In this document: positions 53,438 through 56,083 of the stretch, piece by piece
Layout of the letters: each line of letters starts with the position of its first letter
Numbering within the stretch: position 1 is the stretch's first letter
IMG/VR virus record: IMGVR_UViG_3300046003_007336
Span: 1-64,000 of that record
Length of the DNA stretch: 64,000 bases
DNA from: a virus
Reading direction: 5' to 3' (one strand)
Position numbers and translations under genes: made by a program
Notes under the pieces: generated by a model
The model's database searches: none
What the model was told of the DNA's origin: nothing
What the model saw: only the letters and a program-made list of their open reading frames with translations

Positions 53438-53468
53438 TTGACGCCAAATCGTCCTCGAAGTATAAATA
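53438..53468 (+). promoter_or_regulatory. Overlapping sigma70 and T4-type late promoter of the Ala/Pro operon
   Basis: TTGACG-N17-TATAAA, whose -10 box is also a perfect TATAAATA. Confidence 0.8.
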
Positions 53469-53475
53469 GGACGTT

Positions 53476-53583
53476 ATGTTGATCCTGTTCACCCTCGCTG
53501 CTCTGACCGCAGCCGCTGCCATCGCAGCGGGACAGGCCCCCGTGCGCTTCGCACCAGCCCCGGCTAGCCGACCGCGACCCTAA
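53476..53583 (+). CDS. Ala/Pro-rich leader peptide (35 aa)
   Basis: MLILFTLAALTAAAAIAAGQAPVRFAPAPASRPRP; 12 Ala (all four codons) and 5 Pro; starts 7 nt after the promoter. Confidence 0.55.
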   Translation: MLILFTLAALTAAAAIAAGQAPVRFAPAPASRPRP

Positions 53584-53666: not shown

Positions 53667-53742
<76 letters not shown>

Positions 53743-53767: not shown

Positions 53768-53844
53768 CGGGGTATAGCTCAGTCTGGTAGAGCACTCGCT
53801 TTGGGAGCGAGGGGTCAAGAGTTCGAATCCCTTTACCCCGACCA
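53768..53844 (+). tRNA. tRNA-Pro(UGG)
   Basis: Cloverleaf, C1:G72, encoded CCA. Confidence 0.95.
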
Positions 53845-53874: not shown

Positions 53875-53948
53875 CGGGGTGTAGCGCAGTCTGGTAGCGC
53901 ACTGGTCTCGGAGTCCAGGGGTCGTAGGTTCGAGTCCTACCGTCCCGA
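53875..53948 (+). tRNA. tRNA-Pro(CGG), CCA not encoded
   Basis: Cloverleaf with CT-CGG-AG loop; ends ...CCCG-A-CT. Confidence 0.85.
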
Positions 53949-53969
53949 CTGAACAGATAGTTTGATCAT

Positions 53970-54026
53970 CGGGGGAGGCCGTGAGAGGCCAGTGCACTGA
54001 GGTGAAAATCCTCCACCCCCCGTCCA
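53970..54026 (+). ncRNA. 57-nt mini tRNA-like element without an anticodon arm
   Basis: CGGGGG/CCCCCG stem, GGCC-GTGAGA-GGCC arm, GAGG-TGAAAAT-CCTC T-like arm, 3' TCCA. Confidence 0.5.
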
Positions 54027-54035
54027 AACCATCTT

Positions 54036-54111
54036 GGGGTCTTAGCTCATCTGGTAGAGCGCAACACTGGCAGTGTTGAGGTGGCGGGTTCGAGTCCCGC
54101 AGATTCCACCA
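54036..54111 (+). tRNA. tRNA-Ala(GGC)
   Basis: Cloverleaf, G3:U70, CCA. Confidence 0.95.
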
Positions 54112-54115
54112 TTCA

Positions 54116-54215
54116 TGGGCGTGTCGGCGACAACGGGGGCTACCCCGCTAGGCCACCTGCGGTCGGCCCGAAAGGGGGCTTCAGGGAGAGGTGCAAGGCC
54201 TCTCGCGTTCCACCA
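54116..54215 (+). ncRNA. Non-canonical tRNA-like RNA with Ala identity (100 nt)
   Basis: TGGGCGT/GCGTTCC-A-CCA acceptor (G3:U70); GAGAGG-TGCAAGG-CCTCTC T-like arm; extra internal hairpins. Confidence 0.6.
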
Positions 54216-54248
54216 ACCCCGGCGCAATCCCGCGCCACGAGAACCGAT

Positions 54249-54419
54249 ATGGACAAGAAGACGGAGAAGAAAAAGAAGAAACTGCTAGATCGCATCGCCG
54301 AACTGGAAACCGAACTCCGGCAGTCGCTGGGGAAGAAGGATAGTCGCACCGTCGAGATCGACGTGCCGTCCCAGATGCGGAAGATCGCCGATTTGCAGGC
54401 ACAAGTATCGCGGATGTAA
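54249..54419 (+). CDS. Small basic coiled-coil protein inside the tRNA cluster
   Basis: MDKKTEKKKKKLLDRIAELETELRQSLGKK... Confidence 0.65.
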   Translation: MDKKTEKKKKKLLDRIAELETELRQSLGKKDSRTVEIDVPSQMRKIADLQAQVSRM

Positions 54420-54425
54420 ATCCAC

Positions 54426-54500
54426 GGGGATATAGCTTAACGGGTAAAGCGCGCCCCTCGCACGGGCAAGTCTGCGGTTCGATTCCGCATATCTCCACCA
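54426..54500 (+). tRNA. tRNA-Ala(CGC)
   Basis: Cloverleaf, CT-CGC-AC loop, G3:U70, CCA. Confidence 0.9.
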
Positions 54501-54505
54501 ACAAC

Positions 54506-54577
54506 GGGCGGCACAGCCAGTGCAATGGGAATAAGCTTTCCCAGAAGAGTGGGAGTGGCTCTCCCCTCCGTCCACCA
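54506..54577 (+). ncRNA. Degenerate tRNA-like RNA with Ala identity (72 nt)
   Basis: GGGCGG/CCGTCC-A-CCA (G3:U70); TGGGAA-TAAGCT-TTCCCA and GGGAG-TGGCT-CTCCC arms. Confidence 0.55.
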
Positions 54578-54582
54578 AACAG

Positions 54583-54661
54583 GGGCCAGAGAACCACAGG
54601 CGTGGTTCGACGGTGAAGGGGGTCGCTCCTCCATGGGGTTCGATGCCCCACTGGTCCACCA
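54583..54661 (+). ncRNA. Non-canonical tRNA-like RNA with Ala identity (79 nt)
   Basis: GGGCCAG/CTGGTCC-A-CCA (G3:U70); 7-bp D-like arm with 4-nt loop; TGGGG-TTCGATG-CCCCA T arm; no canonical anticodon loop. Confidence 0.65.
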
Positions 54662-54690
54662 TTTCAACACCAACATCCTGGGAGGATGCT

Positions 54691-55544
54691 ATGACACTGC
54701 GGGACGCCTAACAGAGACCTACCGGACTTTCTGCCTCGAACGCGGCATTGAGTTTCATGAGGTCAAGAGTGTGAGACCACACGACAACACGACCTTGTTC
54801 TGCCCTGCGGGGATGCAGCAGTTCAAGGAAGACTACCGGGGACATCGTCGCGGGACCGTATCCAATATTCAGTCCTGCATCCGGCTCAATGATCTGGATG
54901 AAATCGGCGACCAAACCCACCACCTAACCTTCGACATGATCGGGCTGTTTTCGTTCCGTGACATGAGCGTTCTGGAGACCATCGATTTCTGGTTCGAATT
55001 CCTCTCCAAGATTGGCATCAAGCCCGACGTGGTCACCATCCACCCGGACAAGATGCTGGACTGGCGAGAACTCTATCGGGGCCGCGACGTAGAAATACGG
55101 CCGGACCCGGAGTGCACGTGGTCGGACGGCGGCATGGGTGGATACTGCACGGAGTTCTACGTCAGAGGCGTGGAGATCGGCAACATCGTGAATACCAACG
55201 GAGATTCAATCGACGTCGGTTTCGGGATGGAACGCCTTCTCTGGGTTCTCGGCGAAGAAACGCCACCGCGTGGGGACATCCTGGTCCGCACCATCGACCG
55301 CATCGTTGAGTCGGGATACCGGCCCAGCGGCAAGCAGCAGGGTCATGTGCTCCGGCGCCTGATCGGGTTGCTGACAGACGAGGGCAGCCATCCCAACCAC
55401 CCCGAGGTCGTCAGCGAGACGTCCAGACGGGTGAAGCTCTCGGAACGCTTCGACCGCCTTTGGCCGAAGCATCAAGACAAGTCGCCAGAGTGGTGGCTGG
55501 ACACCCACGGTATCGTGGTGTCTGAAATGGTCCTCAGGGTGTAG
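54691..55544 (+). CDS. alaS: Minimal alanyl-tRNA synthetase (aminoacylation core only); SD-linked ATG 54691 is out of frame with the body
   Basis: TTLFCPAGMQQFK, QSCIRLNDLDEIG...HHLTFDMIGLFSF, IDVGFGMERL, GYRPSGKQQGHVLRRL and WLDTHG match the AlaRS core motifs in order; ~280 aa, no editing or C-Ala domain. Confidence 0.85.
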
Positions 55545-55609
55545 CTCAGTGGCAGAGCGCACGGTCGGGAATCGTGAGGCCGGGATTTCAAAATTCCCCA
55601 CCCTGACCA
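55535..55609 (+). tRNA. tRNA-Pro(GGG), overlapping the alaS stop
   Basis: CAGGGTG/CACCCTG-A-CCA; loop TC-GGG-AA (C33 instead of U33). Confidence 0.85.
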
Positions 55610-55654: not shown

Positions 55655-56083
55655 ATGAAGTCATGCACCAAATGTAAACACATACTCACAGACGATCAGT
55701 TCTCAGCGAAAAATTTGACTAAAAACGCTGCGTGGTGTCGCCCCTGCATCAAGGCATATGATCAGGCCAGATGGTCTGCCGGTTCTCGACGAGAAACCAA
55801 AATCGAACAGACAAAAATTTGTCGCCGAAGAAACCGTCAGCATGTTTGGGACTACCTGACTAGGAATCCATGTCCTTGCGGCGAGACAGACCCCATCGTT
55901 CTAGAATTTGACCACCGCGATGGAATGGAAACAAAACGAGGCAATATATGCGAGATGGCCTCACGGGGCCTGTCGATAGAAACTATCGATGCGGAGATCG
56001 CCAAATGCGACGTGCTATGTGCGAACTGCCATAGACGAAAAACGGCAAAGCAGTTCGGCTGGCACGCCGATCTTATTACTTGA
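55655..56083 (+). mobile_element. HNH endonuclease with N-terminal Zn finger
   Basis: CTKC...WCRPC; CPCGETDPIVLEFDH...KCDVLCANCHRRKT; TAAATA at 55644-55649. Confidence 0.8.

Follow-up and report, generated by a model that had tools for sequence, protein, structure and literature searches.

The window analysed here is the first 64 kb (64,000 nt) of a 198.5-kb IMG/VR record, IMGVR_UViG_3300046003_007336, which represents part of a lake-water giant phage of the T4-like kind; the record is itself a fragment. The tRNA genes of this phage lie in clusters grouped by amino acid (Ala/Pro, Gly/Glu, Met and Leu), and it has its own tmRNA, a permuted molecule of the alphaproteobacterial type at genome positions 76109–76601. 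The Ala/Pro cluster is an operon on the plus strand, at the head of which we read by eye a promoter-like TTGACG-N17-TATAAA (53438–53466) that is missing from the list of our consensus scan because its second hexamer ends in A. There follow an Ala/Pro-rich leader ORF of 35 codons (53476–53583), recognized from the sequence, and the canonical genes for tRNA-Ala(UGC) (53667–53742, 70.8 bits with the Rfam tRNA model), tRNA-Pro(UGG) (53768–53844), tRNA-Pro(CGG) (53875–53949) and tRNA-Ala(GGC) (54036–54111). Directly 3' of the last of these lies element B, the subject of this report, a 99–100-nt Ala-type tRNA-like RNA that begins at 54116 or 54117 and ends at 54215, as read from sequence and folds. 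Beyond it come a lysine-rich small ORF of 56 aa (54249–54419), tRNA-Ala(CGC) (54426–54500), two further Ala-type tRNA-like RNAs assigned by sequence and fold, element C (72 nt, 54506–54577) and element D (79 nt, 54583–54661), an ORF of about 285 aa for a paralogue of the AlaRS catalytic domain (54690–55544; annotated "alanine--tRNA ligase-related protein", Pfam PF01411), and tRNA-Pro(GGG) (55535–55609), which overlaps the 3' end of the AlaRS-like ORF. The canonical tRNA genes are supported by both ARAGORN and Rfam, and all three tRNA-Ala genes encode their CCA. The consensus scan found no internal promoter-like or terminator-like sites between 53640 and 55600.

Between tRNA-Pro(CGG) and tRNA-Ala(GGC) there is an 86-nt structured spacer (53950–54035) with a G5/C5 helix, two hairpins (one with the 7-nt loop UGAAAAU) and the tail ...AAACCA; it has no G3:U70 and matches no model. 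Directly behind the operon, a Cys-rich ORF of 142 aa (55655–56083) resembles by eye an HNH-type homing endonuclease and is without a Pfam match up to E = 0.01. Its position recalls segB, a gene in the T4 tRNA cluster. Further along the genome, a long stretch free of genes behind tRNA-Met contains a set of tRNA-like hairpins (74621–74678; L142:1622-1678) that has a canonical T arm, is without CCA and gives a weak mascRNA match (26.2 bits, E = 0.096).

A preliminary description of this stretch had reported a single oversized element; the size holds, but B is one of three non-canonical elements, with C and D, in the same Ala/Pro operon. The start of each lies exactly 5 nt past the CCA of the preceding gene. 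The motif TCCACCA occurs at 22 sites on the plus strand of the 198.5-kb record, six of which fall within 920 nt here, three in the canonical tRNA-Ala genes and three in B, C and D. Contigs from four other lake-water runs span the B region without a single difference, and element B is therefore not an assembly artefact.

The acceptor helix of B is formed by 54117–54123 and 54204–54210 through seven pairs, three of them G·U; with both registers considered, its 3' strand extends over 54204–54211. Numbered from U54116, it opens with a U1xC72 mismatch followed by G2-C71 and G3·U70, the pairing that the preliminary description had given, and an alternative register with U54208 bulged yields G1-C72, G2-C71 and again G3·U70. 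The two registers are isoenergetic (-46.4 versus -46.5 kcal/mol), and under either of them a G·U at 3:70 stands ahead of A73 (54212) and an encoded CCA (54213–54215). A T-like arm (54186–54204) stacks directly on the acceptor; its 6-bp stem (GAGAGG/CCUCUC) and loop (UGCAAGG) are as first described, and the stem in the T position has a length of 5–7 bp. Compared with the UUCRANN type, the loop keeps U54, C56, A57 and A58 and has G, not U, at position 55; the T loop of the phage's own tmRNA (UGCGAAU) also has G55. In place of the D and anticodon arms, B has two irregular hairpin arms, arm I at approximately 54126–54154 and arm II at approximately 54156–54185, the latter with a CCC-GAAA-GGG cap, and its minimum-energy fold is a cloverleaf-like junction from which these two long arms extend. 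No 7-nt anticodon loop appears in the folds of B. All the motifs quoted in the preliminary description are found where it had placed them, including those of three interior hairpins, but these three cannot coexist, as the second and third share C51-C52 in the 99-nt numbering. The alanine determinants G3:U70 and A73 are likewise in place, together with CCA, and the likeness to tRNA is confined to the acceptor/T end: acceptor, A73, CCA and a stacked T arm are there, and a D arm and an anticodon arm are not.

Pair 4:69 of B differs from the G-C of the operon's canonical tRNA-Ala genes, and its acceptor is unlike all three of these genes at pairs 4–7, so that B is not a fresh copy of any of them. 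The fold energy of B compared with shuffled sequences is not significant (z = -0.72). When background pairings of the form GGG...UCC-ACCA elsewhere in the genome were inspected, an adjacent T-like hairpin was present in 0 of 24. The combination of position and features in B is far from chance, unlike the fold energy alone.

The comparison with tRNA, tmRNA and Y-RNA covariance models that the preliminary description had proposed gave no match over B. ARAGORN calls the six canonical tRNAs of the operon and neither a tRNA nor a tmRNA over B, and the Rfam tRNA clan has no match over 54116–54215, even at E up to 10 and in a 131-nt search. A tRNA carrying an insertion or intron was rejected after every single deletion of 3–69 nt had been submitted again to ARAGORN, which made no call for any of the 1414 deletion variants of B and none for those of C or D either. 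The tmRNA models RF00023, RF01849, RF04321 and their relatives do not match B, again even in the 131-nt search; at 99 nt the element is too short for a tag frame and pseudoknots, and the sole stop in its body is without a tag-like ending. The model for Y RNA/YrlA (RF02553) gives weak matches over the upstream canonical tRNAs and none over B, and mascRNA was rejected with no Rfam match over B.

We also considered a TLD-only mini-tmRNA. The TLD-only tmRNA of mycobacteriophage DS6A, located at JN698994 28478–28560, was used as a positive control and scored 34.7 bits with the Rfam tmRNA model in a comparable search. A TLD-only covariance model (R1), built from DS6A and the IMG/VR look-alikes L234 and L276, gives 37–54 bits for three further look-alikes (L213, L267 and L225), 25–27 bits for canonical tRNA-Ala genes and 22.8 bits for element D; B reaches no more than a local match of 6.3 bits with filters off, and this candidate was rejected. 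The GG-CGAC that follows the acceptor of B is also found in the phage's own tmRNA, and the TLD-only marks missing from B are the single closing P2 helix, in whose place there are two arms, and GGAC before the T stem. Neither SmpB nor FemAB genes were found in the 198 kb of the record, itself a fragment. With both the Rfam tmRNA models and the TLD-only covariance model negative over B, the earlier statement that it has no tag ORF and is not a tmRNA stands.

The two sister elements show the same ends in shorter bodies. Element C has G1-C72, G2-C71, G3·U70, A73 and CCA, with a 5-nt loop in the T position and without an anticodon loop, and it matches neither Rfam nor the TLD-only model. Element D has a perfect 7-bp acceptor with G3·U70, A73 and CCA and a canonical T arm; its interior has a 7-bp tetraloop hairpin in the D position and no 7-nt anticodon loop. 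The best Rfam match of D is tRNA-Sec (25.8 bits, below the cut-off).

The small ORF behind B belongs to no Pfam or PHROG family. Its protein homologues are all 55–56 aa long; the closest (68%) is encoded on an 89-kb contig, another stands at 64%, and one lies inside a tRNA cluster of the complete 578-kb phage G005. The ORFs that overlap B match no PHROG family and, taken together with the 55–56-aa length of the small protein's homologues, this indicates that B is not coding.

A sequence homologue of B was found neither in IMG/VR or INPHARED nor in any of the collected loci. An exact 32-mer of its T arm and acceptor had no match in IMG/VR, and its acceptor-strand pattern had six, all chance-like sequence of coding type without a T arm; blastn of the B region against 50,697 phage records matched the canonical tRNAs alone, and blastn-short of B against all collected loci returned nothing. 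The phage G005, which was reached through its small-ORF homologue, has a 106-nt element (L199:1944-2049) between tRNA-Ala(GGC) and tRNA-Ala(CGC), the same position as that of B, with G1-C72, G2-C71, G3·U70, A73, CCA and a canonical T arm. G001, a phage of 424 kb related by its DNA polymerase, carries an element of 107 nt whose ends are the same (L196:8239-8345). Rfam recognizes nothing in these two elements outside the T arm. Both CCA and G3:U70, whose free loss among homologues the preliminary description had named as the mark of a pseudo-tRNA, are kept in the G005 counterpart and the G001 analogue. MAFFT and RNAalifold gave no meaningful alignment between B and the elements of G005 and G001, and interior alignment scores among B, C, D and these two are at the level of shuffled sequences. 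B, C, D, L199:1944-2049 and L196:8239-8345 share a place in a tRNA array, G3:U70, A73, CCA, a T-position arm and the lack of an anticodon loop; as their interiors cannot be aligned, this working group rests on the ends. Such kept ends with dissimilar interiors point to selection acting on the ends alone.

G001 has four more tRNA-like sequences of 84–131 nt (L195:4433-4520, L195:9030-9119, L196:7629-7712 and L196:13045-13175), with perfect or near-perfect acceptors, canonical T arms, CCA and non-Ala ends, which are called neither by ARAGORN nor by Rfam; in the 131-nt one a normal D arm is retained and a body of about 60 nt replaces the anticodon arm.

The AlaRS-like ORF matches Pfam PF01411 with 66.5 bits and AlaRS entries of the PDB at E = 1e-12. 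It belongs to a family of 888 homologues of about 290 aa found in Rhizobium, Inquilinus, Caulobacteraceae and many phages, in the alignment of which the alanine- and ATP-binding motifs are invariant columns. The phage enzyme is without the elbow-binding C-Ala domain and should therefore read the acceptor end alone. The mini-AlaRS of Tupanvirus, which also does without C-Ala, charges bare acceptor helices well (Antika et al. 2023, PMC10036535), and by analogy with this viral enzyme B, C and D are plausible substrates. Most of the approximately 140 paralogue loci examined have no tRNA-like element beside the gene, and no match to the paralogue was found in G001 or G005, so that coupling of such elements to the enzyme is not general.

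The start of the AlaRS-like ORF is itself unusual. There is no ordinary start codon; an SD-served ATG at 54691 lies in another frame that stops after six codons, and the family-invariant A-G-R-L is encoded in the AlaRS frame from 54699, inside this six-codon frame. The Met of the homologues aligns with a CTG at 54678, and the only in-frame ATG (54633) falls in the T-arm sequence of element D. The sequence of this region (54678–54722) is borne out by independent contigs, and a frameshift, if there is any, would lie within the first two or three codons. A second odd synthetase start is that of a HisRS-like ORF in G005 (region L198:2940-3400), whose start region (ATG 3071) is out of frame with the conserved body; it lies in a His/Ser/Tyr tRNA cluster, which also houses the small-ORF homologue, and an uncalled class-II-like tRNA-like sequence without CCA is found 24 nt 5' of it.

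Two of the paralogue's settings elsewhere may be recorded here. A 635-kb uncultured huge phage of 29% G+C (L447; LR745206.1 361938-374759) encodes a short AlaRS paralogue of 53% identity within a 13-gene tRNA array; a tRNA-Ala(UGC) lies about 400 nt downstream, and no CCA-encoded Ala-type mimic was seen in the array. Phages with the paralogue also give 88-nt calls of "tRNA-Ala(agc)" (L005:1585-1672, L011:2368-2455 and L018:2356-2443), in which a GCAA-capped extra hairpin replaces the anticodon loop; the acceptor is that of the neighbouring tRNA-Phe and 3:70 is U:A, which is not Ala identity.

In IMG/VR we looked for GGGC followed, after a gap, by a T-loop core and an Ala-type 3' end, with C70 in place of U70 as the control. 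Among the matches listed, 10 of 39 with Ala-type ends and 1 of 50 with control ends were shorter than 95 nt and uncalled by ARAGORN (Fisher p = 0.0009 for the excess among these matches). At 95 nt or more there was no Ala excess, with 3 uncalled Ala-type and 7 uncalled control elements among the matches listed. From these matches, the non-canonical Ala-type tRNA-like elements of viral contigs form a genuine population that is under-annotated, and B is of its rarer, oversize kind. Several of the 10 short elements are TLD-only-like. The look-alikes from IMG/VR, L234:5315-5398(-), L276:10494-10574(+), L225:5115-5246(-), L213:4915-4997(+) and L267:9660-9740(-), are 81–132 nt long and uncalled by ARAGORN, and from such sequences phage TLD-only mini-tmRNAs seem far commoner than the single published case.

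Our tentative interpretation, to which we would give a little less than an even chance, is that B is a processed, alanine-chargeable and non-decoding mimic of tRNA. RNase P would cleave the polycistronic transcript at G54117 (or U54116), and trimming would take the 3' end back to the CCA in the manner of the neighbouring tRNAs; the product would be alanylated through G3:U70 by the host AlaRS, the phage enzyme or both and, having no anticodon, would be excluded from normal decoding. The weakest step is the role, which may be that of an alanine-accepting ligand, decoy or sink for whatever reads the acceptor end of tRNA-Ala, AlaRS being the first candidate. This interpretation draws on the retention of G3:U70, A73, CCA and a T arm in the G005 and G001 elements despite unlike interiors, on the 5-nt spacing, the clustering of TCCACCA, the lack of T-like arms in the background pairings and of an internal promoter or terminator, and on the Ala-type excess of short uncalled elements and the invariant motifs of the AlaRS paralogue. 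A wider proposal, which we consider improbable, joins B, C and D to the paralogue of about 285 aa in a phage-borne orthogonal alanyl-RNA system outside decoding, in which anticodon-less carriers would be charged by a synthetase that reads the acceptor stem alone and might donate alanine, regulate the enzyme or act as decoys for factors by which the acceptor end of tRNA-Ala is attacked or modified; the related carriers of other giant phages would then depend on the host AlaRS.

Against the reading of B as a mimic stand its imperfect acceptor (slip or bulge, with three G·U pairs), G55, a 4:69 pair that is not G-C, the odd non-Ala tRNA-like sequences of G001, the oversize elements without Ala enrichment and the unremarkable fold z-score. 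Much of this would fit the main rival, which we judge rather unlikely, namely that B is a decayed duplicate of tRNA-Ala (or of a tmRNA end) kept as a processing spacer with no role of its own. Only the minihelix needed for RNase P and 3' trimming would then be maintained, freeing the neighbouring tRNAs and the small-ORF message, and G3:U70 would be a relic. A slipped acceptor, T loops that are degenerate in both B and C, interiors unrelated among all five elements, similar odd elements in G001 with other ends, the lack of specificity of oversize elements for Ala-type ends and the failure to find a homologue of B are all as such decay would have it. Yet a G·U that is neutral to RNase P should often turn into G-C or A-U, and at 3:70 it is kept in 5 of 5 elements of Ala clusters; moreover, none of B, C and D yields a detectable tRNA on any single deletion, and short non-canonical elements are enriched at Ala-type ends among the matches listed from viral contigs. 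We regard it as very unlikely that B is a highly derived TLD-only mini-tmRNA that binds SmpB (with AlaRS and EF-Tu) and modulates or blocks host trans-translation. DS6A is a precedent (Hudson et al. 2014, PMC4131195), the phage invests in ribosome rescue through its own permuted tmRNA, GG-CGAC follows the acceptor, the T loop has G55 as in the phage tmRNA, and such elements are common among the uncalled Ala-type elements of IMG/VR. On the other hand, the Rfam tmRNA models that give DS6A 34.7 bits find nothing in B, R1 ranks it (at about 6 bits) below canonical tRNA-Ala, there are two arms where one P2 helix is expected and no GGAC before the T stem, and no SmpB gene occurs in the 198 kb of the record.

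The same low probability attaches in our view to a role in cis, in which B would be a leader or processing signal for the 56-aa ORF or the operon mRNA and its likeness to tRNA would be no more than a means of recruiting RNase P or of fixing the ends or stability of the mRNA. From the end of B to the small ORF there are 33 nt, the AlaRS-like ORF comes directly after C and D, and the uncalled tRNA-like sequence of G005 is 24 nt before a HisRS-like ORF. But the counterpart of B in G005 precedes a tRNA and not an ORF, the small-ORF homologue of that phage is in a different tRNA cluster with no such element directly before it, canonical tRNAs could serve equally well, and the kept G3:U70 would be left unexplained. 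That a chance structure, or a piece of coding sequence (the ORF 54081–54419 or ORFs of the minus strand), accounts for B is barely credible: open frames do cross the region in DNA of 57% G+C, and the fold energy is unexceptional, but the upstream extension of the small ORF is not conserved in its homologues, no overlapping ORF has a PHROG family, the frame would need a start inside a tRNA, and position and features together are far from chance.

Should B, C and D prove to be expressed and charged with alanine, giant phages would possess genes for alanine acceptors unable to decode and distinct both from tmRNA and from the sole described TLD-only phage tmRNA. They would be a new player in phage control of host translation, with AlaRS, EF-Tu, ribosome rescue and defences against tRNA ends as candidate targets, and would provide natural substrates for a family of very short AlaRS paralogues with a wide distribution among phages and alphaproteobacteria. 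For the matches listed, the control scan suggests that viral non-canonical tRNA-like genes concentrate on Ala-type ends and are missed by tRNA and tmRNA finders.

With canonical tRNA-Ala (RF00005), B shares G3:U70 in the acceptor helix, A73, CCA and a T arm set on the acceptor; it differs in lacking a D arm and an anticodon stem-loop, in G55, in a 4:69 pair that is not G-C and in its length of 99 nt. Non-decoding acceptor/T mimics that are handled by tRNA enzymes include the 3' tRNA-like structures of plant RNA viruses, with Val, His or Tyr identity, and the mascRNA-type RNAs. The former are 3'-terminal parts of genomes and the latter eukaryotic nuclear transcripts, unlike B, over which Rfam has no match. 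The species I and II RNAs of phage T4 are co-transcribed with eight tRNAs (PMC2330249). Compared by description only, they are like B small non-tRNA RNA genes within a phage tRNA operon, and they are stable and matured from the same precursor as the tRNAs. Their function was long unknown, and we know of no alanine identity for them.

In minihelix and microhelix substrates, alanylation by AlaRS needs only an acceptor end with G3:U70 and A73-CCA (PMC10036535). These substrates are laboratory constructs, whereas B occurs naturally as a gene, has extra arms amounting to about 60 nt and is predicted to be charged. The phage AlaRS, which comes from a divergent family of paralogues, has about 285 aa and is far smaller than TuAlaRS. 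A close parallel among phages is the TLD-only tmRNA of mycobacteriophage DS6A (tmRNA Website tmID 11587; Hudson, Lau & Williams 2014, PMC4131195), and a TLD-only-like molecule inhibits tmRNA, perhaps through titration of SmpB (PMC4131195). Both DS6A and B are phage-encoded and have G3:U70, A73 and a T arm with neither an anticodon nor a tag frame, and recognition by AlaRS is expected for DS6A. However, DS6A retains a D-loop analogue, GG..UCGAC, and a single closing helix, in contrast to the two unrelated arms and degenerate T loop of B, and B lies in a tRNA operon and has an encoded CCA, which DS6A lacks. Non-decoding, alanine-accepting mimics are thus already known in tmRNA and DS6A; B falls outside both by the tests that recognize their members and is built on a different body.
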